A stretch of 32,000 nt of DNA from Candidatus Saccharimonadota bacterium (GCA_042852035.1 BAAFHK010000002.1:90001-122000); one strand, 5' to 3'; shown: positions 2-26,839, numbered from the stretch's first letter. Made by a program: numbers and translations. The notes: a model not told the origin generated them from the sequence alone.

Positions 2-3000
2 TGGAGAAACGCCACTTATGCCTGTTTTACTCAAGCCTGAACCCCCAAGCTTGATTCATACTTCTGAGGAAATAGCCTTCTCAGGCTTATGGTAACTGGA
101 GAGGATCCAACAACATTCTTAAAATCCCCTCCATCAGGAACCGCACTTACTGGATTTTCACTCCCTATTTTTGATATTGAGGGAATGAAGGAGACCACCA
201 GACTTCCAAATCCTTCACTCGCTGACTGTACTTGAAATCGTTTCCAATACACTCTTCTTCAGCCACATACATTTTCCTATGATGTCAATGACTCTTGGAG
301 CTATAATGGATGAACTTATAATTGTACCTGAGGGTACCCTCTTGAGTGGACGAACTCTACTTCCTACTGTCCGAATAATGCTCTTACAAATAGTCCAAGA
401 TTTACTTGTAATACAGTTCATACCAGTTATCCTGGATGAAGCTCGATGGCTGATTCCCTCGCTGTCTATAACACTCCTTGTTACTATGGAACTCTTGTAA
501 TTGATGGAAAATATTTTAATAACACAACATCTCTTTCAGTTGGGCAGGTAAACCTTTGAAGTCAGTGTATTATACCAGGAAATGCCTACAATGGTATCCC
601 CGATGTCGATAATACTGTATATCAGAATCGAGTCTTCCATACTATTCCATCCCTCCTTAAGCATGTCTCACCAACAAGTGCTGAAATTGCTGCAGCGAAG
701 GCAAATGGAGCAAGTCCATCAATTCCAGTTGATGCAATACGGACGGTTGAGTTTCTCACTCAAAAATGAGGAACAGCACGACTTACATATCCAAATTTCT
801 TTGAAGCTCCAACGACGTCTATCGCTGATGTTCGTGCCTGGCTTAAAACACTTTCTGATACTGAATGGAATGGAATCATAGCTGCAGAAAATGCACGCGT
901 ACAAACTGCACTTGATCGAAATGTTGCTTTGAGTCTCTGAGCAAATCCACTCCCGAATGCCCCAATCGACTGGAACACTCTTATTACTGATGATGTAATC
1001 GAAAAAATAATACGAGCAAAACGTTCCCTAGCTCCAAATGTCACAAAAAAATATCAGAATCTTCTCGAGGCGGGTCTTTCATATTCTCATACATCTTCTG
1101 GAGATATACTGGATAATCCACTTCCACTTCCGAAACTATCACAAGGGTATGAAATTGCATACCTTTGATTGACTCCATTTACTCCAAAATGACAGGCAAG
1201 TGAAGAAGATGCTTCTCTTCAGGGATACCAATATCAGCTTTGAGAACTCCAATGACTCAATTTCGTAGAACAAGACCCAGCACTGACTGATCCTGACCCT
1301 TCGATAAAAGCTCAAGCTGAATGTGGGCCGCCAGATGGTGTGCCATTATTTCAGTGGCCTTCAGCGATACAGTGTTGGATTAAGACTCTCTTCCCAGTAA
1401 AGATTGTTCCAGGATCATGTGGCTCAAACACGATTTGAATTGCACAAGGTACGCTCTCAAGTGCTCCACCTCCAATAGCAATAGCAGGGGATAGCGCAAG
1501 CCTTCGTACATATTATAGTAATGCTCAGATAGTATACAGCATTGAGCGAACTATGATACAGCCAGGATGAAATATAGAAATACAGTACTATCTTAATAAT
1601 AATGGGGTATTGGTAGAACTTCCTCCAGATGCTTCGATAGATTTAAATATTTCTTCGGTTACGGCAAGCGGGCAAAATATTTCACCAGATAAATATGGTG
1701 AGTATGTTACTCTTTCTTCATCGAATTGAACCTATACGAATGAAGGGGCATCATTTGTGGTCAATTCTATATGACCTTTTGCTGACATTTCATTGGTTCC
1801 AAAACTTACCGTTCCACTTCCTGATGGAACAATATATGAAAGTATCGGTGCACAGATGGTTCTCAAGGTTCGAGATGAATATGTCGATATTCTTCCAAAA
1901 GCAGGAACAATCCCAGTATCTTCATTTGAAACAACAAGTACTGAAGCATTAACACTCAATTTCGAAGCAAAGCAAGGAACGGGTATAAATATACCAACTT
2001 CACCACCATATAAGATGGATATATATGATGATGTTGCTTGAGTTTTAGTTGAAAGTTGAATCACGATAAATAGTGACACCTACACTCTTTGATCGAAGTA
2101 TAAGGATGTTATTTGAGTTTACCGATTTGTAGTTTCTGATTCAGCAGGTCGTGCAGGTGAAGCGACACTAGCAGTCCGTTCAGGTCCTGTTGCTCGTATG
2201 GATTTTATTCCAGTATCTTCATCAGTCGTTACCGGAAAGGAATCCGTAGGTGTGTTACGACTTCTTGATGCAAAAGGAAATCTTGTATCACCGAGCCTTC
2301 TTCAGCTTACAGCAAATATAACGAATGGTTCCTTTATTGATGGTGCGGGAGCATATGTTCCAACCATGAGTATGGATTCTACTGAATCAGAAATTCTGTT
2401 TCGGTATATGGCTTGAAGTATAGGAACCATGAGCATGAATTTTTCTATTGCAGATCCAAATGTTTCTAAGTCTTCAAGTGTAAGTGTTATTGATATACCT
2501 AAGGTGCATATTATTCGATCATCGACACCAAAAGTTGGTGAGGCTCCTATTACAGTTGATATAGAACTCAGAGACCCAGTAACAAACACTCCAATTTCTG
2601 GATTCTCATCACTTGCTACTCTTGATATACCACCTGGTGCTGGTGCTTTTGATAAAACTACAGTAAATATTGAAAATGGTCGAGCTGAACAAGTAACATT
2701 TACTCCTTGAAAGGTCGCTTGAGATCATGTATTTACTATAGAAATTGCAGGAGTAGGGAATACCACCGAGAAAAAATTTAATGTACTCCCAGGAGTACCT
2801 ATGTATATAGATGGAACTATTACGAGTACAAATATAGAATTTGCCCTAAGAGATAGATACGGAAACCTCTCTCCAGAATCCCCAGCTGGAACTACAAAAC
2901 TCAATCAAGATCTCCCAACTCCTATAAACTTTACAGATGGGAAATATATTATGCCACGGGTTCCATGATACTGGAAAATAGAAGCTCCTTCTATCAAGCT

Positions 3001-6000
3001 CAATACGATTACCTATGTTGATAATGATAATGGATCAACATCTACAACAGCAACTGGAACTGTGACAAAGACGATTACAGGTATCCCATTCTACCAACTC
3101 TTTGTTCCTGATGCTGGAAGAAATTTTGGATTCAGGCCAGACTATAATGCTCGATATACGGTTCTTGCTTGAGATGCATATCTGAGTGAAGGAAGCCAAA
3201 TTCTTTATGAGACAGCGCCATGACAGTCTCAGAGTCTTGCTGTTTCAACAATACTTACTTCGCCCTATGAGAAGGAGTCACTTTTTTCTATTTATCCTGG
3301 CTGAGGTTATAGTGTTGGTGCGACATCAGATACAGCGATTGAAACAAGCCTAAGAAATCGTACGGATAGCCTTCATCTTGAGGCTTTTGATACTGCAAGT
3401 CAGACTCCTGTTGCTCGAGTTGCTTATCCGATGAAGAATTTGAGTTTTTCTTCGTGTCTAGAATCGAGTTCTGAACTTTCTGAGTGTAGTATCCTCGGCA
3501 GTCAAGGAGCGATTATGTTCGTTACCTATAAATGAGATAATACTACGATTCAAAGCAATGCGAACGAAGCTGCGATTATTATCGACAACGTTGAGAAAGT
3601 AAAATATAATGCAAATGTTGGACTGAGTCTTGGGGAATGAGTGACTCTTTCTCCTATTTGAGACCAATCTATCTCAAGTCTAGTTGTCGATGTTATCGAC
3701 AATGGAAATTCAATCGGAAAACTTCTCGTGCATACTGATGAATCATGAGGAGTATCAGTGTGAGATTCAAATGTTCCTGTAAATGTTCTTACTCTGGATG
3801 AGAAGTTTTCCTATTCTTTGACGCCAAGTTATAGTGATATCTTTAGTCCAGAGAAGAAGGGATATTCTCTTGTAAGAAATCCTTCAAGTCAAATGATCGA
3901 TGAAAGACTCGTCTGACCTTCTCGTATAGAGAGTTTTGGGGCACTTCTCGATGTACCATGAGTATGATGGCATGGGAATAATCGTACTCTTCTCTCATTT
4001 GCTGCATGAGATACTGTAGGTGAGGCGACAAGATGGTTCCATACCTATACACTTGTCAATCTTGGTGATCCAGTTGCTCATGTTGATCTTCCTGATCCAA
4101 TAAATGGTATTCCTGCTCCACCCGAAACAGAAATGGAATGAGTAGATAGAAGTATCGGTACGCAGATTGCTAGTTCTTCAGATCGATATATTCAATCCTA
4201 CAAAAGAAAGGATATGAATGGGGATGGGCTTGAGGATGTGATTGTTGTTTATAGTGATGGCTTTATCGAGCTCTATCTTAATATGGGAGGAACATTCCGA
4301 AAGAAGGAAAAGATAGCCTATATTCCATATATAACCCCATTAGGTATACAGCTTGGTGATTTTACAGGAGATAAATATGCAGACATAATCGCCCTTGATC
4401 GATCAGGATCTCTTGCTCTTGTTGATAATGGGCTGAGAAAACTTAAAGAAACGCTCATAAAAGTAACTGGGGATTTTGCACCAAATGGCATCACCCAATA
4501 CAAGGTCTATGACATGGATAATGATGCTCGTGATGATATCGCTTATCTCACGGAAGGTTGAGAACTGGGAATTCTTTATGGTACTCCTGCTGCAGGGACA
4601 TTCGAGAAGAAGATTCTTGAATCAAATCTCTGAGTAACCCTTTCTTCAGATCCTGAAAAATGAGGGTGAGCCATTAAGGCAAGCATTACTCCGACCTCTC
4701 TTCTTTCGAATCCTACGGGAACCTGAGCTGACGAATCCGTCCTCAATACTGAAGTATTCTACCTCCTTCAATCCGTTTCAGGTACACCAGCTGTTATCAC
4801 AAGTGATGTTTCAGTTATTGATGCGACATTTACTTGAAGTTTTACTGATCCAAATGAGGTTCCAGTATATTCTTGATCGACAGCAACAGGAGTACTTTAT
4901 GTGAAGAGCGAATATGCGCCAGCATATGGACTAGAGGTAGAAAAAAGATATACGAATCTTTCATCTACGACCATCCATGGTGGAGATCGCATACAAGTAG
5001 AGATACATATTACCAATAGTGGATCACAGATAGCAAAAGATGTTAGCTATTTGGATCGAGTTGCAAAAATATTTGAAATTCCAGAAGACTCAAAATATCA
5101 AATTCAACTCGGAGGATCAAACCAAGAGAAGGATTTCGTATCACTTTCTGGTGAAGATTACGAGCTTATACTCCAATGAGTCGATATCCCTCCTGGTCAA
5201 ACTCTCAAATTTCTCTACCAACTCATAGCCACTCCTACTTCGTATGGAGATATGATTGTAGATAATCTTGAGAAAAATCTTGCTTGAGATGATCCATTTG
5301 GTGATGTTGGATTTGAAACATCGAATACCTGTGGAGCAGATATGGTAGTCTGGAATTCAACCGCAGTTCGAGACTATCTGAGGTGAATTCGTTCATTTAC
5401 TCCAGCTGACCTTCCTCCATGACTTGCTGCAAAGCTTGCGGATGCAAATGCTAATGGTATTCCTGATAGTATTGAATTTGCTTCTTGAAGTTCATTTACC
5501 GGATGAGCTCAGGCAACTCTTACAAATGAATTTAATAATATAACAAATTCAGCAACCAATAATCAAACGAACATACTTAATGTAAATGTGAATCCATCTG
5601 GGCAACTTGCTACCATTTGATTTAGTCCAAATGTTGAACAAGAGCTCGAGACAACCATGCAGAATCTTGCAGATGGTCTATCATGTGGATTTGGGTGAGG
5701 ATGATGTCTTTCTTCTCCGATAAACTGGGCACCACTTGCACCAGGAAATGCGATCTCCGTTCTTGGTTCTCCAGTATGAAGAAGTCCAGCAGTGAACCAG
5801 GGTATTCCTGTATTTGCAGCACTTACGAGGATGGATGTTTGAGTTACTCCATATTGTTTTAGCTTTCCTGTTGTATGGCCTGTTTCTCCTCTTTCTCTGA
5901 ATGCCTCACTTCCATGTAGTTCAAGCAATGTGGCTACCGCTTGGTGAGAGGCTGCAGCACAGATGCCAACAGCATTTATGTGAGTGTCGACCGCTTCCAC

Positions 6001-9000
6001 AAATATTGGTGCCGGATGAGTCCTCTGAACGAAATCAAGTAGTAACTTCCTTCGAATATTCGTAACGCCTACCCTTACACTCGGGATGGGTACAGCTATA
6101 TGTATGTGACCTGCATCGACGAATGGTCCAAATCCACTCTATCCTCTTGTTTCGAAAGGAAATTGCATCGTCATGACAAAATCACTTCCTGTTTGTAAAT
6201 GAGATGGATCTGCCGCCGATGGAGATGTTACGGGTATTTCATGACTCGGCACGTCTCGTGATACTTGGAATAGTAACAGTTGTAGTATGAAGGCTGCAAC
6301 GAGTCTTACACCAGCACAAGAGCAATCAATGATTGATGATATCGTAAGCTATATTAAGAGTCCAGATACAACAAGACTGAATAATATCTATAAAAATATC
6401 TCTGCTCGTTGATGAAAATCTGTAAATCTTTGAGGTCCTGCGATTAAACTCGGTGACCCAGGATCTTCAGGAACAGCTATTGATATCGATCTTGATAGCT
6501 CTAAACCTTTCGAAATCGGAAAGATTGTGAAAGTGAATAACAAGAGAATTGCTGGATTTCCTGAATTTATCATGGACTGGGTGTCTCGACAAACAGAAGA
6601 GATAACCAATAAGCTCTTTACTCTGCCGAATCTTGTTATCTATACGCCGAAATCCTATGGTCCAAATACTTCATGAGATCTCTCCGAACTCACGAATTCA
6701 TTCTCAGAAGCGTCTATAAAAAAATGAGTCGATGACTTTACGGCTAAAGTCGGAAGAGCTGGTGATGCTACAAATACGGCTAATGAGCTAAAAAAGAGAA
6801 CCACAGGGAAAACAGCTGCCTCATCAGGATATGATAAATGGCTTGATGGAAAAATTTGAGAAAATGCATCTAAGATTAATGCTGTAACTGGATGAGCAAA
6901 TCAATGGCGACAAGCATGGAAACTTATCGGACAGATACCATTTGTGCAGGTTGAGCAGGTAAGTGTCCCGATTAATATTCCATGGCTCCTCCCTCAAGAT
7001 CTCGATCGCTACGCTCGTTCTCTGAAGCAGTATGAGAATGAATGGAAACGAGCGGAGAATGATTGGTGTGTCGGAAAAACGCCACAAGAATGTGCAGATA
7101 TCAAAACGAATACAAACACTGCAGGGGTACAAAGTACGATAAAAAAGACCATGAAGAGTATCGAAGAATGGAGAAGATTCCCTGAAAAACTCCAAAAGTA
7201 TATTACTTGGAAACAGAGGTATGTAACACAGATTCTTTGTAACATTGATATCCTTGAGCGAATGGTTGGTGGATGGTATCGAGACAATGGTATTCGCTTC
7301 AAAAAATGGGCAGAATTCTATGTTCTTATACGTACTATAGCTGAGACATGGCAGCCATTCCTTGATCTCTGGAGAGATAAGGATCGTTCCTGTTCAGTTT
7401 GTCAAAACCAGAGATGGGATCTGAAGTATTGGAAATTTAAATTACTTTCAGCCGTGATTCCACAGTTGCCAATATTGCAATTTCCACGCTGGCCAGATAT
7501 TGTATTAGATCTTTCTGATATACGATTTGGGGTAGTGTTCCGAGTTCCTGAATTCCGATTCAACATTTCGCCAATAAGACTTCCTGATCTCCCTGCGATC
7601 CGTCTTCCAAATGCTCCAACAGGATCTCTCAATCTTGGATTCAATTTTAATATTCCTCCTCCTCCAAATCTTCCAAATCTTCCTGATCTTCCTTCACTTC
7701 CAAATATACGTCTTCCAAATCTTCCAACTCCACCAAAACTTCCTAAGCTTTTTGGGGCTGTCTCAGTAGGAATAAATATCTTTAAGCTCTATACGAAGAT
7801 TCAGTGTTACATGGAGAAAACACTCCTTGTTCCTGAGGACTATGCTTGAGCAACGATAGCCCAGAGAACCGATAGACAAGGGACTCTTCCTTTTGATTTT
7901 CTCAATTTCCGTCTCCCTCAAATCGCCATCTGAGCATGGCCGAGAGAAATTCGTGTTTCAACCCATGTAAATTTCCAAATAAAGTCTGATTTTATCGTCG
8001 AATTTGCGAAAGCAGCAGTAAAGCCTATTAATGAATTTAGTACGGATCTTGCACGAATGCCAAAGAAATTTGCTCCAGATATAAATATCCAAGGCCCAGG
8101 GAATAAAACGATCAATGTTCATGGAGCGATACAGACCCATGACTATGATGCAGTAATCGCAGCTCTTACAGAAGAACTTCGAAAAAATCAGAGCGATGAG
8201 CTTCTCTCTGTTGATGAGTTTACACCATATCTTCGTTCTGAACTTTTGAAGGCAGGACTTGATGTTGGGAAATTCGATAGAAGCCTCCTTAAGGCAAGAA
8301 ATGAGGCAGATGCCTATACCAAGAAACTTCAAGATGAAAATAAAGAATCATTTAGACTTCTTCGAGAGTACCTTCATGCTGAAGAGGCTGAGACGAAAGA
8401 GCTTGAGAAATTTATCGACCGTCTCAAGGCAGGAAATGCTCTCCTTTCATCACGAGATATTCCTCAATCAGTATTTATAAGTGATACTCCAAGTCTGTCT
8501 GATAGTGCCCTTGATCGATATAATAAGTATCAGAATAAGCGTCTTACTTCTCGAGATTCTGATGTTCCAGATGATCTTGATAAGAAGCTTACATCGATAG
8601 GAAATCGAATGAATCGACTCCTCGCTGCTTGAGTAGGTCCCAATAATTCATCTTCCACGGCACAGGGGTATAGTCCAAGCTTCAATGGTATCTATATACT
8701 CTCTCCTGTTTCAAAAACTCAGACTCGACTTTTTGACTATACGAGCCTTCTTCAAGGGGATGAAGAAGCTGATGTTGCAGATATTGATAACGATGGAGAT
8801 AATGACTACCTCTACCTTCTCTGAGGTTCACTCTATATCAAGTATAACCATCAAAATTCCCCTCAGAGACCAATAGATCTCACTATTTCTACCGTCAATA
8901 CTGATCCAAGTCTCTTACCGGAAACACCAAATTTCTTTAAAGAAAATGTCTCAAGTCCATGACAGATCTATCTTTCATTTAGAAAGGCAAACTCACAAGA

Positions 9001-10720
9001 CACTTCCTTCCGACTTGAATTTTTCAACCGCTATCTCGAATGGGATAGAGTGAAGCTCAACGGGAATGACTTTCCTGATACCCCTCGAACTATAGTAGAT
9101 CTTACAGTTACGGACAATACTGATGATGCTACAATTACTTCAGACTATACAGAATCTCCGATAACTCGATCCCTCGAGTCTGCTTCTGTATGACCGGACT
9201 TTGTTCTTGAGGGTATGAAGGTCACAACCCTCGTCTCTGGTCAGCCATTTGGACTTTCTACAGGGCGTCCTATATATACCGGAAACGGTCAAGCAGTTCT
9301 GTCAGTTACTCTTGAGGGTACTGGTGAACAGAAAGACTTTACCCTCGATAGATTCAAAAAGTATGTATTCCCAGATACTCTCTCTGGAAGTATTACTTCA
9401 GGAAAGGCTTATATTCTTACCCCGTCAGGAACGGAGAAGCTCAGCTATACCAATGACATGCTTGGTATGCCTCTCCTCCCAGGAACGAGAGTTATAGATA
9501 CATCGAATACGATAAGTATTTATAACCCTGTAGAAAATCTTTCGACACAGATTCCTGTTGCAACAGAATATAGGCATATAGGTCTGACAGGAAAGAGTGC
9601 TTCATATTCAGTAAACTTTCCTTATGAGAATGGATACTATAGTGCTCGCCTCAGGTCGCTTCGAACGGGGAATGATATCAATGCTGGTATAACTCTCCTC
9701 GCTCCTCTTGCGGGACTCGATAGATCAGCGCCAGTTGTTGAACTTATGGATCAGAAGGTACCAGTCTATCAAACAGTAACAATCCCACTCAGTGATGCCG
9801 TATCAGAAGCAAGCTCCTTCACATTGCTTGCCGATCCAGATGTGACTCAAGATAGTGATTCAAATGGTGGATATGCAGATGATTTTGTTGCATCAGCTTC
9901 AGGAGTTTCTATCACTTCGAATCAAATTCTTTTTGGTCAGTATGACACGCTCGGAGCTCGAATGATGAATCTTCGTGTTGTAGATTCTTTTGGGAATCGA
10001 TCAACATCTCCTTTGAAGGTTGATGTTTATGCTCCAGTACCAAAAATTAACGCAGTAAGTACCGGATGAGTTCTTTCTGGATCATTGGAAGAACCAATAT
10101 CCCAAGAGCCAATCCATCTTTTCCGAGTGAGACAAGGAGATGGTATTAAGCTTTTGGATCAAAATCCACTTCTCACAGATACGACTGGAAAATTTAGTCT
10201 TGCAAATCTCTTTGGCGCAAATAACACCATTTCTGTCACAAATGGGAATACTTCTACAAATCTTTCTCCAGCTACAGGACTCCCACTCTCTGATCCGAAT
10301 ATTTCAAGTACGGTGACTCCTGCGAATGCCACAGATCCTCTTCAGATTCGATTTACCAATACGAGTACGAATACTCCACTCTTCAAAGCATCTATCGTTC
10401 CTCCATCTAGCCTTCAGGTTATAGGTCCGAATATGAGTTACACTTGATCTAATCCAGTCCTAAAGATTGATCCTCTTTGAGGAACTCAGACGGTTCCTGC
10501 ATCACTTTCGGATCCTAATATTGCATGAGGAATGTACATTACAGAAAATTCTTCTCCTATCATTGGTATCGATAGTCATGGGCAGATCTATCTCATAGAT
10601 TCTTCCGTTACTCTCAGGGCTACAGAAGAATGAGGACACCTCGTTCTCTATGCCTCAAAATGAGGACTTGATGTTGCGAAACTTTCATACCTCTTTGACT
10701 TTTTTATAGCCGGAAAATAA
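2..10720 (+). CDS. Giant secreted/cell-surface protein, 5'-partial (>=3,572 codons with TGA=Gly). Contains Ig-like repeats, FG-GAP/VCBS-like repeats, a Cys/Gly-rich core, a Pro-rich LPxLP repeat and a coiled-coil segment
   Basis: The frame starting at nt 2 has no TAA/TAG until the TAA at 10718-10720. I walked it codon by codon across all gaps between track ORFs (2042-2197, 2711-4213, 4562-4900, 5180-6943, 7850-8056, 8633-9214, 10070-10720) and found only TGA interruptions. Track ORFs at 1793, 2198, 2429, 4214, 4901, 6944, 8057, 9215 and 10085 all share this frame. There is no start codon boundary inside the window. Confidence 0.85.
2130..2995 (+). other. Tandem bacterial Ig-like (invasin/Big-type) domain region inside the giant protein
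   Basis: Repeated blocks of about 90-100 aa follow the pattern 'V..D..GN.V......T....G.F......V....G.A...F'. Examples are LRLLDAKGNLVSPSLLQLTANITNGSF, IELRDPVTNTPISGFSSLATLDIPPGAGAF and FALRDRYGNLSPESPAGTTKLNQ. Assigned by eye only. Confidence 0.45.
4205..4570 (+). other. Three FG-GAP/VCBS-like (integrin-alpha type) Ca-binding repeats inside the giant protein
   Basis: DMNGDGLEDVIVVYSDGFIELYLN, GDFTGDKYADIIALDRSGSLALVDN and YDMDNDARDDIAYLTEGGELGILYG. A further copy, DIDNDGDNDYLYLLGGSLYIKY, lies near 8775-8840. Confidence 0.6.
7577..7750 (+). repeat. Proline-rich LPxLP short tandem repeat (in-frame low-complexity segment of the giant protein)
   Basis: Peptide RLPDLPAIRLPNAPTGSLNLGFNFNIPPPPNLPNLPDLPSLPNIRLPNLPTPPKLPKL. 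At DNA level the units cttccaaat / cttcctgat recur. Confidence 0.8.
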
Positions 10721-10769: not shown

Positions 10770-12227
10770 ATGCTTCCAAGAATCACCATCATCGGTCGAC
10801 CGAATGTCGGAAAATCAAGTCTCTTTAATGCGCTCTCAGGTCACCGAATCGCTATCGTTTCGGATATCGAGAATACAACTCGGGATATTATCGAGTATAA
10901 GATGAATGATGAAGTTCGAGATATCTCTTATATCCTTGCTGATTCTGGTGGTATTGTTGAAGCGGATGATGAAACTCTTCTTTCTGATGTGCGTGCTCGG
11001 GTGGATGATGCTATAAAAACTTCGAATGTCATTCTCTTTGTCCTCGAATATGACAGAGTCACTGAGTGGGATGAGAGAGTGGCTCGAAGGCTTAGAAAAT
11101 CTGGAAAGCCCATCATCGTTGTTGCTAATAAAGCAGATAATCCAAAACGCGATATCGAATCCTATACTCTCCTCGAGCTTGGTCTCGGAGAGGTGATTCC
11201 AACGAGCCCGATGCAATCTCGATGACTCGATAAGCTTCAGGATGCTATGGTTTCTGAACTTCGAAAACTTGGATTTACGGGTCACGTTGAGAATGATGAT
11301 CACCTTGAAGGGATGCTTAAGCTCGCGATTATTGGTCGACCAAATGTTGGGAAATCATCGCTCGTAAACGCTATTTCTTGAGAGACTCGTGCTATCGTAA
11401 AAGATATGCCAGGAACAACTCGCGATGCTATCGACACCATCATTACTCATAATGAACAAGAAATCTGCCTTATTGATACTGCAGGAATCCGTCGAGCCGG
11501 GAAGATAGGATCAGGGAATATCGAAGACTGGAGTGTTATGAGGGCTGAGCGTTCCATCGAGCGATCTGATGTTATCGCTATCGTTATCGATGCCTTCGAA
11601 TGAGTAACTCATCAGGATGAGGTAATCGTCGGGAAAGCTATCGAGGCGAAGAAGGGTATTGTTCTGGTATTTAATAAATGGGATAAAGTCCTCGCAAAAC
11701 CAGGGATTAATGCTTCTACGATTCTTGACCGATACATGAATTATCTTTCGAAAAAATTCGATTTTCTTTCCTATGCTCCTGTTGTTTTTACCCAAGCAAT
11801 CGAAGGGAAGCGTATCGAGCTCGTTCTTGATCATGCTCTAAAAATCCAAGAAGAACGCCAAAAACGTGTGAAGACAGCGGTCTTTAATAAGTTTCTCGAA
11901 CAGATTTCTTATGACCATGCTCCAACAGGAAATAAGAAGTCTCATAAGCCAAAAATATTTTATGGATCTCAGGTTGATGTGAATCCTCCTCGATTCGTTA
12001 TATCTGTAAATAATGCGGATCACTTTCATTTTTCGTACCTCAGATATATCGAAAACCGCATTCGAGATACTTTTGGTTTTGAGGGAACACCGATCGAAAT
12101 CGAGATGAAATCTCGAAAAAGTATGTTTAAGGCCGGGGAAAAATGAGGTCTTGCAGAGGAATATTTTCCAGAAGGTCGCGAAAAAGGGAATGAACATGGA
12201 GTGAAAAAGGATAAGAAATCAAAGTAA
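10770..12227 (+). CDS. der: Ribosome-associated GTPase Der (EngA), double GTPase domain plus KH-like C-terminal domain
   Basis: Two P-loops GRPNVGKSS, DxxG motifs (DSGG, DTAG) and NKxD motifs (NKAD, NKWD). Four in-frame TGAs at 11223, 11379, 11601 and 12144. The one at 11379 gives LVNAISGETRAIV, matching the conserved L.GE.R.IV Gly. Ends at TAA 12225-12227. Confidence 0.95.
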
Positions 12228-15321: not shown

Positions 15322-15324
15322 CAA

Positions 15325-15351
15325 TAAATCCTCCCAGTAAGGGAGGATTTA
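15325..15351. terminator. Bidirectional intrinsic-terminator-like hairpin between convergent ftsH and the orphan gene
   Basis: taaatcctccc (15325-15335), agtaa loop, gggaggattta (15341-15351): a perfect 11-bp stem. It lies 3 nt after the ftsH stop and abuts the minus-strand stop at 15352-15354. Flanking A/T tracts are weak. Confidence 0.6.
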
Positions 15352-16029
15352 TTAGTAGTGACCATCAACGAGATCTTCATATCCTGTCTTTCACCATCCG
15401 ATGAGTCATGCGGTATTTGCTGTTGTACTCTTCTGTCACGACCTTCGGGATTCTCTATGATCGAATGTATTTCTTCGACCGAGAAGGATATCTACATATG
15501 GCCTTGCGATGGCAAGGAAAGATTCACGATGTTTCCTCTGTAGCTGCCAAGATTTCCTTCCACCGGTACTGAATTCTGACTCTTGGAACCAACCTGGATG
15601 CTCTTCTCGAACCATGCCGATGAGGAGCTTGATCTCATAGTAGTTGAGATCGAGAATGAGAGTATTGATTTCTTTCGCTGAAAGGGTTTCTTTTGTATTT
15701 TTTGATCGTTTTCTTCAGGCTAGCAGTCATCGCACTCTCGCCTGGATATCTTCACTCAGATTCAAGAGAACTTCTTTATCTTGAGAGAGCTCCCTTTCTA
15801 TGTGCATCTTTTGGAGTCGATGACTCCTCGCTATCCCAGCTTCACTCGAGTGCCCCACTTGCTCTACGATAGGATCAGATGTGACGATGCCTTTTAGTGC
15901 GGCCTGGACGAGTCGTTCGACCTCTTTGCTCTCTATACCAAATTGCTGTCCCCAATAGTCGAGACTTTGGCTTCTGAGATGAGATGTAGCATCTTGTTCG
16001 GTAGTTGTAGGGAGAGGAGTGTCTGGCAT
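15352..16029 (-). CDS. Hypothetical protein (225 aa) with a C-terminal HEPN-like RNxxxH motif
   Basis: The track ORF 15727-16029 continues through 5 TGA codons for another 125 codons with no TAA/TAG, ending at TAA (15352-15354 on +). The C-terminal segment ARPYVDILLGRRNTFDHRES contains R-N-x3-H. I recognise no other family. Confidence 0.6.
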
Positions 16030-16068
16030 TAGGTAATTTTAAATATAAATGAAATGATGTCAATAAAA

Positions 16069-16168
16069 TTAATATTTTGTTAATATTTGTGTGAAGAATT
16101 AAGTTAATATTAAAACACTCTTAATTCTGGAAGGCTTTTTGTTTTGAGAAAAACTAAGTATTAATATA
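16069..16168. promoter_or_regulatory. Repeated TTAATATT boxes in the AT-rich divergent intergenic region upstream of the methyltransferase
   Basis: Exact TTAATATT at 16069-16076, 16080-16087 and 16104-16111, the third extending to the palindrome TTAATATTAA. An imperfect TTAATATA lies at 16161-16168. Boxes 1 and 2 are 11 bp apart. Confidence 0.4.
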
Positions 16169-16191
16169 ATACGAAAAATTTGTTATTGAAT

Positions 16192-17430
16192 ATGTCTAAA
16201 GAAAAGAAACACATTAAAATTATTGAACTTTTTGCTTGAGTTTGAGGATTCAGAATCTGACTTGAATCAGCATCAGATTTATTTAAGGTTGTCTGGAGTA
16301 ATCAGTGGGAACCTTCAACAAAAACCCAAGACGCCTCAGATATATATGTGTCTCGTTTTTGAAGTGAACATCACTCAAATGAAGATATCGCAAAAGTAGA
16401 AACCGATTCTATACCGAATTTTGATATGCTGGTCGGATGATTTCCTTGTCAGGATTACTCCGTAGCTCGTACACTTAAACAATCTGCTTGACTTGAATGA
16501 AAGAAATGAGTTCTTTGGTGGCAAATTCATAGACTTCTTTCAGAAAAAAAAGAGAAGCCGTCATATTTATTCCTTGAGAATGTTGATAGATTATTAAAAT
16601 CTCCAGCAAAACAAAGATGAAGAGATTTTGCAATAATGCTTGCATCACTTTCCGATTTAGGGTATGCAGTAGAATGGCGAGTAATTAATGCTGCTGAATA
16701 CTGAATGCCTCAAAGAAGAAGAAGAGTTTTTTTCCTTTGATATCATAAGTCAACAAAACTCTATCACGATTTACTTGCTTCAAAAAGTTCTTGGATTTCA
16801 AAAGATTGAGTACTTGCAGGGGCTTTTCCTATAAAGGAGAGTCCAGCTTTGATTAAAGAATTTCAACTTGAGTGAGATCTTGTTGAGCTCACAAATGAAT
16901 TTAATAAATGATTAAAAAAGGCAAGCCCATTTGAGAATGCCTGAATAATGATTAATCGAGAAGTTCTTAGTTATAAAGTCAGTCCAAATTATAAGTGAAA
17001 ACATGTAACTCTTTGAGATATCTTAATACCTGACAACGAAGTTCCTGAAGAATTTTTTATCAAAGCTGATACTCTAGATAAATGGAAATATTTAAAATGA
17101 TGAAAGAGCGAGAAGCGTGTAAATAAAACTACCTGAATAGAGTATAAATATAGTGAAGGATGAATGATTTTTCCTGATGCACTCGATAAGCCTTCTCGAA
17201 CCATTATCACAGGTGAGTGAGGTGCTTCGGCATCAAGGTTTAAACATGTTATTGAAACTAGTGACGGACGACTTCGAAGACTTACCCCTATAGAACTAGA
17301 ACGACTCAATATGTTCCCAGATAATCATACAGCTTGAGCTACCAACATTAAGCGAGCATTCTTTATGTGAAACGCACTTGTTGTTGGTGTTATTAATAAA
17401 ATTTGACAGTCACTAGCATCAAGGATATAA
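16192..17430 (+). CDS. DNA (cytosine-5)-methyltransferase, type II R-M modification subunit (M.Sau3AI-like)
   Basis: Motif I IIELFAGVGGF, motif IV GGFPCQDYS, motif VI ENV, motif VIII QRRRRVF, motif X GNALVVGV. Both Gly in FAGVGG (16237, 16243) and one in GGFPCQ (16438) are TGA. Ends at TAA 17428-17430; 412 aa. Confidence 0.93.
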
Positions 17431-17437
17431 AGAAGGG

Positions 17438-18874
17438 GTGCTTACTAATTTTGATCAGACATCTCCAGAGTCAATTTTAGCTTTTGCTAAGAAATTATTG
17501 TGAACGAATTTAAAAAGCATTTTACCACCTTGATATAAACCAAGATGAGGTAAATGAGGTTTGTGACAACTTTTAGAAGAGCATTATTTTCATAAACCTT
17601 TAGATAGTGATAGTAAGCCTGATTTTCCTGATGCTTGAGTCGAACTAAAGGCTACACCAATAAAGAAATTCTCTAGAAAATGAATTTGAGCAAAAGAGAG
17701 GCTCTCTTTAAATATAATAAATTATGATGACCTAGTTAATGAGACTTGGGAAAATTCACATTTCTTATCAAAGAATTCACTACTTTTACTAGTATTTTAC
17801 CTATACGAAGAAAATCAGATTAATATAGATCACTTGATAAAAATAGTGGAGCTTTATTCCTTCTTAGATTATGAAGAGGATTTAAAAGTTATACAGAATG
17901 ACTGGATTACTATTCAATATAAGGTTTTAGAATGAAAGGCCCATGAACTATCTGAATGAGATACTCAATATCTTGGCGCTTGTACGAAGTGAGCAAAAAA
18001 TCAAAAACCAAGATCCCAACCATTTTCTTCTACTCTAGCGAAACAGAGAGCATTTTGTTTTAAGCAGGGGTATGTAAATTATATACTCAAGCGAATCCAG
18101 TGAAAAACTAGAGAGTATGATTCGCTTTTTAAGAATGATGGATTGGATATAGCAAAAATAAGTATTGAGCAAAGAGTAAAGACCTTATTTAAGCCTTATT
18201 TATGAAAAACAGCTTTTGAATTGGGTAACATATTTGGAATGGAATTTAAGAATCAAAAGGGATATTATGCTAAAATTAGTGATAATATAGTAAAAATGAT
18301 ATTGTGAGTAAAGAATCTTAATAAGGTTTCGGAATTTGAGAAGGCTAATATCTCCTTAAAGACTATTAGGGTTTCTTATGATTGAACAATTCAGGAAGAT
18401 ATTTCTTTTCCTGCATTTAAATTTTGCGAAATTATAAAAGAGGATTGGTATGATTCTGAACTTTATAATTTACTCGAGTCCACAAAATTTCTTTTTATTA
18501 AATATAGAATTACCACAAATACAGTTGCCGAGTTTGATAGATTAAATGATACAGAAAAAAATAAATTTTTAATTTTGGATGAAGTTTACCTTTGGAATGC
18601 TCCAGTTAATGATATCGAAAATTATGCTAAACAAACATGGAGAGATACAATTAAAATAATCAAGGAATGAGTTATAATAAATCCTATTATTCAAAAATCA
18701 TGAAAAGTAATAGAAAGGAATAACCTCCCAAAATCTAGGGATACTAAAATGATTCATGTTCGCCCGCATTGAATAAATAAGAAAGATATTGATATACTTC
18801 CAAACTGAAAAGAATTAACAAAACAATGTTTTTGGTTTAACAAAAGTTATATAAAAGACCAGCTTTGATTTTAA
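17438..18874 (+). CDS. MutH/Sau3AI-family type II restriction endonuclease (predicted GATC-type specificity)
   Basis: The N-terminal block GKGGLGQLLEEHYFHKPLDSDSKPDFPDAGVELKATPIKK...KERLSLNIINY is the MutH/Sau3AI D...E-x-K nuclease signature. One frame, TGA interruptions only, TAA at 18872-18874. GTG at 17438 is the first start after the in-frame TAG at 17414; there is no in-frame ATG near the N-terminus. Confidence 0.85.
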
Positions 18875-21614: not shown

Positions 21615-22070
21615 ATGGCATATTGGATCATGAAAAGTGAACCTTCTGAATACTCTATTGATGATCTTGAGCGCGATCGTGTTTCGAGCTGGTTTTGAGT
21701 TCGAAATTACCAAGCTCGGAACTTTATGCGAGATAACATGAAAGAGGGGGATGAAGTCTTTTTCTATCACTCATCCTGTGATGAAGTATGAATAGTATGA
21801 TTTGCAAAAGTCGTAGGGAAACCCCATCCTGATGAGACACAGTTTGATAGTAAAAGTGATTATTTTGACCCGAAAGCAACGCGAGAAAAACCAATTTGGA
21901 TTTGTATCGATGTTGCCTTTAGTTTGAAATACCCCCGTGTCATCACTCTCGGGGAATTGCGAAATATGAGAGGGCTTGAACATATGAGAATCCTCCAAAA
22001 AGGAAATCGACTCTCCATCACTCCGCTCACAGACAATGAGTGAGAAATTCTAAAAAAAGCCTGCTATTAG
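21615..22070 (+). CDS. EVE (PUA-like) domain protein
   Basis: MAYWIMKSEPSEYSIDDL...SWFGVRNYQARNFMRDNMKEGDEVFFYHS...IVGFAKV...DPKATREKPIWICIDV is the canonical EVE signature. The Gly of GVRNY is TGA. Confidence 0.88.
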
Positions 22071-22079
22071 GCTTTTTTT
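22052..22079. terminator. Bidirectional terminator hairpin embedded in the overlapping 3' ends of the EVE and PhaZ genes
   Basis: aaaaaaagcct (22052-22062), gctatt loop, aggcttttttt (22069-22079): an 11-bp stem with an A-tract on one side and a T-tract on the other. Confidence 0.65.
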
Positions 22080-23524
22080 CTTGATCTGGATTTTGCTCTA
22101 TTCTCAGCTTCAATCTCACCCAGAAATGCATCAAGTTCTCCGAGATATCTCTCACGAAAGAGTTTTCCAGCAAAAGTTCCATAGTGACCAGCTCCTTCGA
22201 CCAAAATATGTCGACTTTTTCGTGGATTGGTGATATTTTGCGCTGCTTCGGTTTGTCCGATTCCGCATATATCGTCTCGATCTCATTCTACAGTGATGAG
22301 GGGGGTAGTCATGTCTGAGAATCTCACTTCATTTCCATTGTACATAACTTTTCCTCTTGCCCACTCATTTCCTCGGAACACTCGGTTTACCGTACTTTCA
22401 TAAAACTCATGAGGTAAGTCCATAATGGCAAAATATTCCTCATAGAAGGCAAGCATTTTTCTCTCATCCTCATTGAGGGGGCTTGTTTTATAGGCAAGTT
22501 TTCTATAGTTTGCGAGATGTTCATCAGGTTTTGTGGAGATAAAACCCATAATCTGAAGTGCAGCTGGGTAGACGGATCGACCACTTCATAGTTTTTTCCC
22601 TTCGGGGATGGTGAGTTTTAGGCTCTCGAGGACATGGGGATTGAGCTTTTCTCCCGTTTCATTGATGGCGGTAGGTGATTTGCTCACATCGATTGGTCCT
22701 GCCATGAGGGTGAGACTACGAGGCTTTGGGAGCTTGTGCGTCTCAGCATACGTAGTTGCTGTTAGGGTTTCAGGACTTGGTTGACAGACGGCGAGCGTAT
22801 CGAAAGTTCCACCATCTTTTTCTACCACACGAAAGGCATTGAGTACTTCAGTCGTATATCGGTCGACCGTGAATTCTCCTTTTGATTTCTCTACATTAAA
22901 GGGGGATTTCCAGTCAGTAATATAAACGGTATATCCAGCCTGATGAAGGCTCTCTACAGTCTTTCGAAGTAGTGTTGCGAAATGTCCGCTCATTGGAGCG
23001 ATAAGGAGCATATTTCGGCCATTCTTGTTTTCTGGTGCGGCTTCGAACTTTAGAATATCAGCGAAATCCAGACTTTCAACTCGAGTCGGTTCGATTCCAA
23101 GCTTCCAATCTGGTCGATTAAAGGTGAAAGTAAATGCGAGATTCGTACGAATAAAGTTCTCTACTTGTTGGAAAAGGGGAGGAAGTACAGGAAAAAATGA
23201 TTTTATTACTTTGAGTTGAGTCAGTGCCATCTCGAAAAAAAGCTTTCTCGCTTTCTGAGATTCAAGAAAGACGTGGTAGGGATTCATCCCATTTGAGAGT
23301 CCGTGGCTGAAGTTTGCTGGTCGGAGATTTTCCTCAGCATCATAGCTTTGGAGTTTTGTTTGAAGTTCTTTGAGCATCTCAACTCCGATATTGTTCGGAT
23401 CAAGAAAAGGATTCATTCGAGTGAGAGCTCATGTTACCATCTTTGCATACCCAAGCTGCATATCCCAAAATCTCAAAACAGGGGATCGTATGCCTTGATC
23501 GAGTTCGAGTGCTTCAGTGCTCAT
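22067..23524 (-). CDS. phaZ: Polyhydroxyalkanoate (PHB) depolymerase, intracellular PhaZ type (alpha/beta hydrolase with PHB_depo_C-like C-terminus)
   Basis: ...MLLIAPMSGHFATLLRKTVESL...YITDWKSP...AVCQPSPETL...LTLMAGPID...VYPAALQIMGFISTKPDEHL...LITVEGDRDDICGIGQTEAAQNI...LVEGAGHYGTFAGKLFRE. Two track ORFs plus the C-terminal extension share one frame, joined by TGA. TAA at 22067-22069. Start could be 23524 or 23560. Confidence 0.8.
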
Positions 23525-23599
23525 AGGGATGCTATAAGTGATAGTGTATTCATCATACATAATTTTTTGGAAATGCAAGATTTGCGAAAATTTGCTTCC

Positions 23600-23635: not shown

Positions 23636-26600
23636 TTATGCGTCTTTCTTTTCTTGTGGTTCTCAAAGAGTCTCTTCTTTCGATTTCTTTTTTCTTATGA
23701 AATACCATATCCCTATTGGGATGAGTAGAAGTATGCCAAAGAATTGGAAGAAGCTTCCTCTTGTACCCCCAAAATTTGTCACTTCAGAAAGAGGTGTTAT
23801 ATTTCCAGCCTGAAGGGAGAGTGAGTTCGCACTTCCTCCTTGAATCCCCATTGATGCTGATTTAGTGGATCCAAACATGACATTTGATGAGCTTCTTCGA
23901 GGAGTTGATTGGATTTCTATGCTTTCCATACTTGAAGAAGCGTCGAACATGGTTCTATTTGACGCAGGAACAGCAATCATCTCACGACGATTCCATACTG
24001 GAGAACTTTGAGTTGAGTCGAAGTTTTGATAGGTGGTATCATATTTGTTATCTTGATTTGAATATCTTTCGAGATCAGATCTTTGGCGATCATTTTCCAG
24101 AGCAATAAGACTCATTGACTGGTTGATAACGTGGGCAACATTTCCGATTCTTTCCAGAAGCATCTCCCCTGAGAATTCTTTATATACCGTTTTGTTTATA
24201 AATAGAGAACTTCCAGATGATTTTATAAGTTCAGATCAACTCAGAAAGTAGTATCCAGATTCTGTTACTTCGATATGTCCTGATTGACTTTTTGATCACT
24301 TGAGACTATCGGGGTATGCATAATAGAGAACCCTCTGATTTCAGTTCAGGTCAGAAATCATCTGAGTGCCTCTCGTTTCATTTCATTGCTTCTCTTCTGT
24401 ATAGGAATAACCAGGATAGAGATACGTAGGATAGACGAGAGTTTTAATAATACCAGTTCAAAAAATACTTTCCCCGATGACTTTTTTCCCATCCCTTCCT
24501 CCTTCGAGTGCAATGAGTGATCCGGTATTTGTTCCGCTGTATGGTTCACATTGAGTGACTGTTTTTTTCGGAGAAAAGATGGATCTCATAGCTTCACTGA
24601 GAGGGGTTTCAGGATTGAGTCGGAGGACATCACCTTCAGTTACGAGGATTGATTTTGTTACTTCTGTTTTGAGAGTTCGGATCTTGTCCCCGATTTGTAT
24701 GAGGGAAATACGATTTGATTTGAGCTTCTTATAATCGATCGTTGCATCTATAGTATTTATTTTTTCATACGAATCATCATCGGTAAGGATGACAATATTG
24801 GCATTCTCGATAGTATTATTTTTTATATACGATATCACTACTGACATATCTGTATTTCCCCAGAAGTCGATATCCGAAAGGTCATACCCATGAGCCGTAA
24901 CCATCGTATTGAATGTATAGATATCGAGAGCTACACCGTTATTTTTCCAAGTATCGATGAGTTCTTGATAGCGTTTCTTCATGGATTTCTCTTCGCCGAT
25001 ACTCTTTGAAATATCAAGGAAAACAATATTCTTTGTGAGATTTTTTCCACTTCCAGAGAGTGATGCTATATTGATTCATTCGTACGTATTAATCGCACAA
25101 TATCAGAGTGAATCTTTCAGGGTTCATTCGAGTTTTACGGAAAGAACTTTCCCCCGTAAGAGATCATCGATAATGCTTGTCTTAAATGAATCTTGGTGAA
25201 GGGCTTTTGTTCCTTCCATGACACGAGTAACAATTTCTGATTTATTTGTGAGTTTGAGATTGAGGATATCAGTTTTTGGTACCACGACGATATTCTCACT
25301 CGTTGTGATAGGGGTAATATAACTGAACTGTACTCTTTGGCGGCCCTGTGTTCGACTGTCATTGAGAGATGGTACAGGAAATACTCGGAGACGATACGTT
25401 GTAGGTCCTGTTTGTTCTAGGAGGGCTGGATCAGTATTACGCCTGAGAGAGTCAGTATATACTCTTTCTGCAGCGCCTCGTGGAGCGAGTGTTCCTGTGA
25501 GTTCGAGATTGAGTCAAAGTCGGAGATTCGTAACGACTGACTCACTCGTTGGAAGCTCTATTGAGAATATTACTTCCTGATTTTGTGTATCAGTATTTTG
25601 GAATTCATAGGTAACTTGAGTTTCTATCGCACCGATGTCTGTCTGTATTACTGACTCATGTTTTGCGAGAGTAAGTTCTACTTTCGCATTTTCTCATCGA
25701 GCCAACATGCTTGTGCCGTTTGAATTTCTCGTGCGATACTTGTTTACGTCAAGTTCAGTATCAATTTCGCTCTCGATGCTACGGTCAAAGATTCTTGCAT
25801 AAAGGTCCTTTTGGTAGAGCTTATTCTCGAGATAAAGTTCCTTCATGGCCCATTTGAGTCACCATACTGAGGCTGCTCGATTGTATCACTCTGGACTTTC
25901 CCCATATTCACCGAGGATGGTATTTGCTTTTTGTATCTGATTCTTGATGAATTTTTCTTTTATAAAAGGGCTTCCCCAGAGTACCATGAGAAGGAGAGTG
26001 AGTCAGAGGGCTCATTTTCTTATTTGTTTTCTGCCACGTTCATCTATAGGTTCTAACTCATTCCAGCCATAGCTTACCATCATCCACGTGAAAATGAGGA
26101 AAATGGAAAAATAATTCATAAAAGTCATAAGATCTCTCCAGGAATCACCCAGAAATATCCAGATTATGATGAAAAGGACTCAGCCTGATAGGACAAAAAT
26201 AGCGAGTGTAATTATGAGAGCCATAATAGACTGACTATAACAAGTGAGAATCTTTTTGAATAGACCTTCATGTGAAGAGTAATCCTTCAGAAAATGAACT
26301 ATAGGAGAAAATGCATACAATCAGCCTAAAACAAAGAGATACCATGGGAACCCTGAAAAATCTCGATCCGCAAGTTCTCTATATATGGAAAGGACTACTA
26401 TACCAACGAAGAAAGGGAATGTTGTGTTCGTAAGAGATCGAAGTACTGAAAAATTCGGTGACTGAAATTTTTTCCATGCCGAGTAGAGAAGTGACCCAGT
26501 GAGAAGAACAAGAAGAGCGCCTCAAAGTACCACTTCGAGAAATGAGTCTCATGGAAGGAGACTTTCACAATTCCAATAGCTCTGACGATAGACTCAATAG

Positions 26601-26839
26601 GAGTATCATCCATAGGAGTGGCACTGCCAAAAAATCGTTCGAAGAATTTCCCAAATGAAGCTACCAGTAACTAAAATAAGAATGAGAGAAAATATACGAT
26701 TTCCCCACATTCTAAACCTTTCACTTTTTTTAACCCAAATAAGGAAACCAATGAGAGTATCAAGCATAAAAATGAATGAGAAGATAAAAGAATCTGTACT
26801 GAATGACGAAAGTCTATTCCTTTCGTGACATTTTTGCAA
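23636..26839 (-). CDS. Large integral membrane protein: N-terminal ~8 TM segments, VIT domain, vWA domain, and a C-terminal TM plus basic tail (sorting-signal-like)
   Basis: One frame is open, with TGA only, from the TAG at 26846-26848 down to the TAA at 23636-23638; checked codon by codon. VIT-like block: QVTYEFQNTDTQNQEVIFSIELPTSESVVTNLRL...AERVYTDSLRRNTDPALLEQTGPTTYRLRVFPVP. vWA MIDAS: NIVFLDISKS ... IVILTDDD. Tail: GGTRGSFFQFFGILLLIPIGIWYFIRKKKSKEE. The start is uncertain (TTG 26839 or ATG 26767). Confidence 0.8.

Follow-up and report, generated by a model that had tools for sequence, protein, structure and literature searches.

A giant, TGA-recoded, putative surface protein family of Gracilibacteria and related bacteria whose conserved central module matches no known family or fold

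The Absconditicoccaceae (Vampirococcus and Strigamonas) have been described as having giant proteins that are targeted to the surface and bear integrin-type domains, and these have been proposed as host binders (PMC8080830, PMC13059738). Here, we describe a giant gene at positions 2-10720 of a 32,000-nucleotide stretch of DNA (hereafter the window) listed under Candidatus Saccharimonadota bacterium (GCA_042852035.1 BAAFHK010000002.1:90001-122000), together with the protein family to which its product belongs. The Absconditicoccaceae giants resemble this family in exceeding 1,500 residues, in signal peptides or membrane targeting, in integrin/FG-GAP domains, and in coming from a TGA-recoded, host-dependent lineage. 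Both papers treat the giants as a loose set, and the passages retrieved describe neither a lineage-wide orthologous family nor an orphan module; we found no paper that unites them in a single conserved family or mentions the central module reported here. That these bacteria have giant surface proteins with adhesion-type modules, and that databases hold uncharacterised orthologues, was already known; what is new is the recognition of a lineage-wide collinear family and of its defining module of ~800 residues, which matches no known family or fold. The most likely role of the protein, held with somewhat more confidence than doubt, is that of a Sec-exported surface fibre, made by one gene, that makes physical contact with the host cell. 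Among database entries, P0007 (MCD5380636.1, 4,004 residues, Candidatus Gracilibacteria) is collinear with the giant over its whole length, with the same module order and the same invariant residues. VAMP_16_20 of Vampirococcus lugosii (4,163 residues, the longest protein there, annotated "hypothetical protein") is probably an orthologue, judging by its size and lineage.

In Gram-negative bacteria, giant Ca2+-dependent adhesins of the LapA, SiiE and MpIBP type, which hold a cell to a surface or partner, are exported by type I secretion and carry C-terminal RTX repeats and many near-identical tandem repeats. The giant is similar to them in its great length, its immunoglobulin-like (Ig-like) domains and its Ca2+-binding-type motifs. 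Unlike them, it has no GGxGxD motif and no internal repeats detectable by BLASTP self-match, its relatives have apparent N-terminal signal peptides, and a module that is unique and free of repeats takes up roughly a quarter of the protein. With the FG-GAP repeats of integrin alpha (PF13517, PF01839), it shares a Pfam score over the cut-off and Asp loops spaced ~50 residues apart, but it shows three clear repeats and one isolated motif 1,400 residues further on, and the seven blades of the integrin propeller are not seen. The giants of Omnitrophota, compared here by description only, are also huge genes of ultra-small, probably predatory or host-dependent bacteria and are proposed to act at the cell-cell interface (PMC10066038; bioRxiv 10.1101/2023.11.21.568195); however, they belong to another phylum, are much larger, and are implicated in cell-wall degradation, whereas Pfam and NCBIfam searches found no hydrolase domain in the giant studied here. 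In a Saccharibacterium, epibiotic growth requires an envelope protein with a VCBS domain (PMC10633639).

Positions 2-10720 of the window are a single gene under strong purifying selection:

2..10720, plus strand: giant open reading frame (ORF) of 3,572 codons followed by TAA at 10718-10720, with 82 in-frame TGA codons; 5' end cut by the window

In the frame that starts at nucleotide 2, the terminal TAA is the first TAA or TAG encountered, whereas the other two plus-strand frames contain 123 and 108 of these codons over the same 10.7 kb, and a shuffled stretch 158 +/- 12 (the G+C content of the window is 39.9%). When the window protein is aligned with three orthologues, Gly occupies 147 of the 302 cells opposite TGA columns (49%, against a background of 7%) and Trp occupies none. 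Because these columns hold Gly in the orthologues and never Trp, TGA is read as a Gly codon (code 25), neither as a stop nor as Trp. Neighbouring genes in the window likewise read through TGA, including those for Der, a membrane protein, FtsH, a Dcm methylase, a MutH/Sau3AI-like nuclease, DinB, DedA, a polyhydroxybutyrate (PHB)-depolymerase-like protein, a VIT-domain membrane protein, MutY, and an alpha-2-macroglobulin-like protein. Compared with the closest relative found (L085), which contains the last 2,533 codons and then Der, amino acid identity is 76%, with proportions of nonsynonymous (pN) and synonymous (pS) change of 0.157 and 0.736. Nonsynonymous change is five-fold rarer than synonymous change, and the ratio of the two (omega) exceeds 0.24 in no 100-residue block, although synonymous divergence from this relative is saturated and the omega values are therefore imprecise and akin to upper bounds. 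The pN and pS values indicate that the frame is coding and constrained along its whole visible length.

It could be argued that the frame is an artefact, either a chimeric assembly or a pseudogene, or that TGA stops divide it into a row of short genes. The orthologues are indeed split at TGA in public annotations made with the standard code (L001, 3803-16168, into four pieces; L003, 516-12854, into more than 10), and long antisense ORFs overlie the region. The antisense ORFs are shadows of the plus-strand frame, and the artefact is refuted by the alignment of TGA with Gly, by the same end-to-end architecture in 67 independent loci, by the five-fold deficit of nonsynonymous change relative to L085, and by 10.7 kb without TAA or TAG; we give it next to no credence. 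The original prediction of one gene in a single uninterrupted table-25 frame, truncated at its 5' end, is thus upheld, the truncation by orthologues that carry 421-472 residues ahead of the first residue of the window protein.

TGA accounts for 28% of the Gly codons of the giant overall, and its share varies along the protein (24-40% in residues 1-2300, 12% in the conserved core at residues 2301-2900, and 17% after the core; residues are numbered from the first codon in the window). The share is 27-32% in other large surface genes and 5-11% in the FtsH, Der, DedA, and PhaZ-like genes. TGA-encoded Gly may be avoided where accuracy or expression counts.

The family was delineated by homology searches with TGA-free pieces of the window protein and with orthologue fragments. 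A search with residues 1860-2700 matched six proteins, one of which (P0003) lies on a 290-kb contig (L001) within a code-25 ORF of 4,110 residues that a standard-code caller presents as four genes at its four TGA codons. Residues 8-3572 of the window protein align with residues 484-4110 of this ORF in a single BLASTP segment at 36% identity. Another locus (L003) holds a 4,112-codon ORF (43.5% identity) and, like the window, has Der and FtsH after it, and a third (L004) an ORF of at least 4,188 codons. A profile of the central part, built from the six sequences and searched against 1.84 billion representative proteins, matched 762 clusters (50% identity) at E < 1e-3, 351 of them below 1e-30. 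Many of the matches are proteins of 3,500-6,000 residues with the module at the same relative position, and the names attached to the family in databases include "VCBS repeat-containing protein" (e.g., MCD5380636.1) and "uncharacterized repeat protein (TIGR01451 family)."

An alignment of 44 full-length members (MAFFT) is collinear from end to end, as is one of a three-member set. Of the 97 columns in which the 44 members show at least 90% conservation, 83 are retained in the window protein, as are all eight conserved Cys residues of the central module; its identity to members in species-representative genomes is 25-44%. When each GTDB species was represented by one genome, a scan with one peptide pattern taken from the core gave 200 confirmed loci. 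The best 80 of these 200 are all in Gracilibacteria, "Peribacteria," or Patescibacteria metagenome-assembled genomes (MAGs), with two complete genomes among them (human oral GN02-873 and a dolphin oral MAG). All 83 related loci examined, from oral, marine, groundwater, and other habitats and with G+C contents of 21-58%, carry a family member with in-frame TGA codons (2 to 333), and 67 of the 83 have an uninterrupted ORF of at least 3,500 residues (median 4,253). Almost all relatives maintain the protein at a length of ~4,100-4,300 residues. These results agree with the TGA-recoded, Gracilibacteria/Absconditabacteria-type origin that had been claimed for the window, and the proposed check of conservation found collinearity over the whole length in every related locus examined.

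More distant members include one from a Taylorbacteria (Parcubacteria) MAG. Five distant members (P0059, P0070, P0090, P0120, and P0142) have 4,200-6,100 residues, with S-layer homology (SLH) and TSP3 repeats near the C-terminus and a shared C-terminal motif (CxxCPCxSxIDHTADLIPGD...SKSN). The window protein has no counterpart of SLH, TSP3, or CxxCPC, and SLH itself was found only in P0059 and P0120. Anchoring or sorting through the C-terminal end may accordingly differ between the distant members and those of Gracilibacteria type.

A few sequence records bear on the recovery of this family. In sequencing run DRR350542 (Logan), a 2.2-kb contig (L084) encodes a protein identical to residues 2315-2615 of the window protein, and two other runs (DRR438528 and DRR438526; L085 and L086) contain the 76%-identical relative in the same giant-Der order; these three samples may yield the full gene and genome. 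Two database entries (P0008 and P0026) are mishandled, with some translations giving W for Gly (...YSWVNDSL..., WYWWWNSP).

The N-terminal half of the visible protein consists of an N-proximal region followed by modules of adhesion type:

2..1501, plus strand: N-proximal region, residues 1-500, with 10 Cys and a family conservation of 0.27-0.41 per 100-residue block
1574..3091, plus strand: Ig-like region (Big_1/invasin-D3/GH2_C5 type) of three to four putative beta-sandwiches, placed by Pfam matches of homologues; sequence poorly conserved
3902..4681, plus strand: FG-GAP/VCBS region, residues ~1301-1560, with three Asp-rich, Ca2+-loop-like motifs at residues 1404, 1457, and 1504
4919..5311, plus strand: DUF11-like putative beta-sandwich, residues ~1640-1770, from a weak Pfam match, a DUF11 match of a homologue, and an orthologue model

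The first 500 residues have no match in Pfam, NCBIfam, or PDB, and in searches of the whole protein against Pfam, NCBIfam, and PDB sequences only FG-GAP scored above its cut-off. FG-GAP_3 (PF13517) matches residues 1404-1463 (nt 4211-4390) with an E-value of 1.9e-12 and 48.0 bits (cut-off 26.9). The Asp residues at 1404/1408/1412, 1457/1461, and 1504/1508/1512, in loops ~50 residues apart, are invariant in the 44 members, and residues 1401-1550 are 54-74% identical to the two closest full-length orthologues. The FG-GAP repeats that had been claimed at 4205-4570 are therefore confirmed. The Ig-like repeats claimed at about 2130-2995 are supported by homology transfer to nt 1574-3091, although no Ig-like Pfam match was found in the window protein itself at E <= 1. 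Invasin_D3, GH2_C5, and Big_1 matches in P0059, P0120, P0007, and P0017 map to window residues 525-607, 731-803, 821-923, and 937-1030; those of P0059 (Invasin_D3, 41.7 bits, cut-off 33; GH2_C5, 83.8 bits, cut-off 32) and P0120 are above the Pfam cut-off, while those of P0007 and P0017 are below it. For the DUF11-like sandwich, the window protein gives a weak DUF7927 match (E 4e-3, 17.7 bits, cut-off 31), and a DUF11 match in P0059 (21.2 bits, cut-off 24.6) maps to window residues 1657-1746. The sandwich is the sole confident part of the AlphaFold2 model of P0003, and in Foldseek it resembles generic pilin and adhesin sandwiches (E ~1e-3).

The central module follows and includes the best-conserved part of the family:

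5675..6178, plus strand: uncharged Gly/Pro/Cys-rich segment, residues 1892-2059, with family-invariant motifs CGFGGGGC...PINWAPLAPG...FVTPTLT...C...C
6563..6616, plus strand: conserved helix EFIMDWVSRQTEEITNKL, residues 2188-2205, with W2193, Q2197, and E2200 at least 90% conserved; predicted local distance difference test (pLDDT) of 76-83 in an orthologue model
6944..8041, plus strand: family-defining core, residues 2315-2680, with the highest family conservation (0.50-0.54)
7085..7345, plus strand: core helix modelled by AlphaFold2 (in P0001) as 87 residues, residues 2362-2448, within a helical hairpin
7391..7402, plus strand: invariant CxxC (CSVC), residues 2464-2467
7574..7747, plus strand: proline-rich strap of 58 residues, residues 2525-2582, confidently modelled without regular secondary structure
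7748..7819, plus strand: helix with the invariant Cys2602

The window protein keeps the invariants of this module, namely CGFGGGxC, PxNWAPLAPG, PTLT, CxxC, the proline ladder, Cys2602, and T.R at 2623-2625. Within the uncharged segment, C1895, C1902, P1906, N1908, A1910, R2018, PTLT 2023-2026, C2034, and C2055 are at least 90% conserved. The core was modelled with AlphaFold2 on an orthologue (P0001, 49% identical; 53 sequences) and mapped onto the window protein; the mean pLDDT is 68.8 and the predicted template modelling score (pTM) 0.55, with pLDDT values of 72-94 over most of the core. In this model, the core would run from a beta-hairpin through the helical hairpin, the CxxC motif, two strands, and the proline ladder to the Cys2602 helix. 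Foldseek found no fold match for the core model (best E 2.4 in PDB and 0.12 in BFVD), and neither the profile of the central module against PDB sequences and Pfam nor orthologue fragments against PHROGs gave a match. The block from about 6900 to 8050, which had been described as unassignable, thus has no match in Pfam, NCBIfam, PHROGs, PDB, or BFVD while being the most conserved part of the family, and the library and fold searches also support the view that most of the protein's length is uncharacterised.

The composition of the module raises a different reading of the protein from that of a surface fibre, in which the apolar segment and the Trp-rich CxxC hairpin insert into or remodel the host envelope (as a pore, a bridge, or a fusion-like device) and the sandwiches are a stalk only. 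The segment at residues 1892-2059 is nearly uncharged (7 charged residues in 168), with a grand average of hydropathy of +0.45, 23% Gly+Pro, 7 Cys, and invariant key motifs; the core holds 15 of the 34 Trp residues of the protein, the long modelled helix, the invariant CxxC, and a further invariant Cys; and the module is at once the best conserved part and without a known fold. Relatives among the Absconditabacteria consume the host cytoplasm by a route that is unknown (PMC8080830). However, this argument is one of composition and of a model of medium confidence (its pTM given above), and for the apolar segment AlphaFold2 returned no usable model (pLDDT < 50; 49 for the job). There is no similarity to pore-forming or fusion proteins in PDB or BFVD, and a conserved apolar segment could equally lie buried inside a domain or hold the protein in the membrane of the cell that makes it. 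We consider a membrane-active contact device of this kind improbable, and it is just as doubtful that the ~800-residue module represents a kind of membrane-active or envelope-breaching device not seen before, opening or bridging the host envelope for feeding; so framed, the module may be common to Gracilibacteria, Absconditabacteria, and at least some Parcubacteria.

The C-terminal part comprises the following features:

8144..8626, plus strand: charged, helix-prone spacer, residues 2715-2875, with 30% charged residues and 8% Gly+Pro over residues 2700-2900
8780..8848, plus strand: single FG-GAP-like, Ca2+-loop-like motif, residues 2927-2949, DIDNDGDNDYLY within DIDNDGDNDYLYLLGGSLYIKYN, from the motif and the family consensus
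8849..10717, plus strand: C-terminal region, residues 2950-3572, family-conserved, without assignable domain, membrane anchor, LPxTG, or RTX

The spacer contains a charged stretch of 54 residues free of Pro and Gly (residues 2757-2810, nt 8270-8431), and an orthologue model places helices at window residues 2715-2748 with low to moderate pLDDT (~60-74). Of the coiled coil proposed for about 8150-8620, the helix-prone charged stretch stands, but a crude scan for heptad periodicity in the giant gave nothing above threshold. A second FG-GAP site proposed at about 8775 is plausible: the Asp motif fits the majority consensus of the family (DxDxDGDxDxxY...YLKEN), but there is no Pfam match, and K2947 is the only position at least 90% conserved. 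Homologues of residues 3065-3355 contain no Pfam domains.

From the 421-472 upstream residues of the orthologues, the full protein would span ~4,000-4,050 residues, the window encoding its C-terminal 3,572, as the best explanation of the alignments. At the N-termini of the orthologues, a run of basic residues is followed by a hydrophobic one and an Ala-rich site (e.g., ...LLVFVLIFSQTFQFHFFGTAQA/HS), and a basic n-region and hydrophobic h-region also begin all 14 further full-length members inspected. All orthologues inspected have a family N-terminal domain upstream of the window's portion (...LIGDxPLPVV...PYTDF...EIWHGVI...), for which Pfam gave no match and a ten-sequence profile against PDB sequences only a chance match. 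A gingipain-like (peptidase C25) identity for this domain, suggested by the shape of the motif, was not supported, the best PDB match being myosin (E 0.047) and Pfam giving none.

In the surface-fibre reading, an N-terminal signal peptide just outside the window would direct Sec export, and the exported giant would stay at the cell surface as a long multidomain fibre. Its order would be the N-terminal domain, three to four Ig-like domains, three Ca2+-type FG-GAP repeats, the DUF11-like domain, the central module, the charged spacer, and the C-terminal region. The sandwich and FG-GAP modules would supply reach and binding, and the central module would be the conserved working part, engaged either in assembly or anchoring in the envelope or in acting on the partner's envelope. 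The surface-type character that had been claimed for the protein is supported by the putative signal peptides of the orthologues, by the Ig-like, FG-GAP, and DUF11-like modules, and by SLH in distant members; the conserved Cys pairs also fit an extracytoplasmic protein. Export, surface location, Ca2+ binding, and host contact are thus predicted from sequence features, and the role in host attachment or attack that we infer is also the standard reading in the literature (PMC8080830, PMC13059738).

Several points weigh against this role. The signal peptides of the orthologues were judged by eye rather than with a predictor, and the 5' end of the window's own gene was not recovered by exact look-ups of two table-11 sub-ORFs or by an exact DNA scan of a metagenome collection. 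In the Gracilibacteria-type members, the window protein included, no anchoring device was found, neither SLH (Pfam) of the kind that anchors S-layer proteins, nor LPxTG, nor a C-terminal membrane helix; no membrane helix was found anywhere in the visible 3,572 residues, and the C-terminus (...LSYLFDFFIAGK) accordingly lacks the marks of a sortase substrate. A metaproteomic study (PMC11452946) detected a VCBS-annotated protein of Gracilibacteria MAGs 25_16 and 25_26 from groundwater, and two family members (L015 and L042) come from MAGs of these names; the detected protein would belong to this family going by the MAG names and the NCBI product name, not by sequence. Finally, host-specific adhesins would not be expected to be conserved over their whole length across lineages of very different habitats, to lie among housekeeping genes, or to show low omega throughout. 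Lineage-wide collinear conservation, housekeeping neighbours, purifying selection, and the lack of tandem repeats together point to a core envelope device rather than a fast-evolving adhesin specific to one host; the giant has the appearance of a core component of the envelope whose central module is invariant.

The giant is far longer than known S-layer proteins, which are very highly expressed. The same conservation could mean that the giant serves the producing cell's envelope as a structural element (a spacer, a scaffold, or a coat resembling an S-layer) and does not bind a host. Its collinearity throughout the lineage, its single locus per contig amid housekeeping genes, the uniform purifying selection, and the SLH domains of distant members would all suit such a part, and PMC8080830 attributes the fibrous surface of Vampirococcus to giant proteins. 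By contrast, the giant far exceeds S-layer proteins in length, its 28% share of TGA among Gly codons hints weakly at modest expression, FG-GAP and Ig-like modules typically bind ligands, and the window protein itself lacks SLH. We regard a purely structural role as unlikely, and retain the surface fibre in contact with the host as the preferred reading.

Housekeeping genes surround the giant. Directly downstream is:

10770..12227, plus strand: der/engA GTPase (Pfam MMR_HSR1 and KH_dom-like)

Der is a housekeeping neighbour and not a functional partner of the giant, and the giant-then-Der order is kept only in L003, L067, L076, L081, and L085. Across the related loci, the giant is flanked by seryl-tRNA synthetase (19 loci), SmpB (13), DnaE (11), an M23 peptidase (11), or Der (a few), and no recurring partner among the flanks suggests an operon. 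The only recurrent non-housekeeping neighbour is a gene for a pilin-like protein of ~700 residues, on the minus strand in the downstream flank of 16 of 82 loci (e.g., L063), with a motif like ...RDSIRISDLKFIESAVEQYYQDNGEYP....

Neither tRNA genes nor Rfam families were found anywhere in the window. Further side observations within it are:

15322..16190: interval between ftsH and dcm, without Rfam match, holding a 228-codon ORF on the minus strand at 15352-16038
16192..18874, plus strand: Dcm-type C5 methylase and MutH/Sau3AI-like nuclease, a restriction-modification pair
22067..23560, minus strand: PHB-depolymerase-like gene (PHB_depo_C, E 1e-45)
23636..26767, minus strand: protein of 1,043 residues with several N-terminal membrane helices, a VIT domain (E 6e-9), and a C-terminal membrane helix
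28075..32000, plus strand, cut by the window end: alpha-2-macroglobulin-like protein of more than 1,308 residues with a signal-anchor-like start and MG2 and A2M bait-region domains

The restriction-modification pair is foreign in composition: its G+C content is 29-35% (40% for the window), and TGA encodes 71-74% of its Gly residues, a share that is 5-38% in the remaining genes. It has the look of a cassette that came from a different code-25 organism richer in A+T. In the VIT-domain gene, TGA makes up 27% of the Gly codons, similar to the giant. A storage-polymer enzyme is unexpected in a presumably reduced, host-dependent genome, and the PHB-depolymerase-like protein could act on host material. 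Vampirococcus has been reported to have two alpha-2-macroglobulin-like proteins among its ten longest.

To explain how Gracilibacteria, Absconditabacteria, and other Patescibacteria hold and feed on their hosts, pili and secretion systems are usually suspected. Because gene calling with the standard code shreds these genes at TGA and translation with code 4 writes Trp for Gly, the family is easily missed in public protein sets. Overall, it takes up ~1% of a 1-Mb genome under strong purifying selection, with its best-conserved third an orphan, and it offers a concrete, lineage-wide target for cryo-electron tomography, surface proteomics, and structural work in existing co-cultures.

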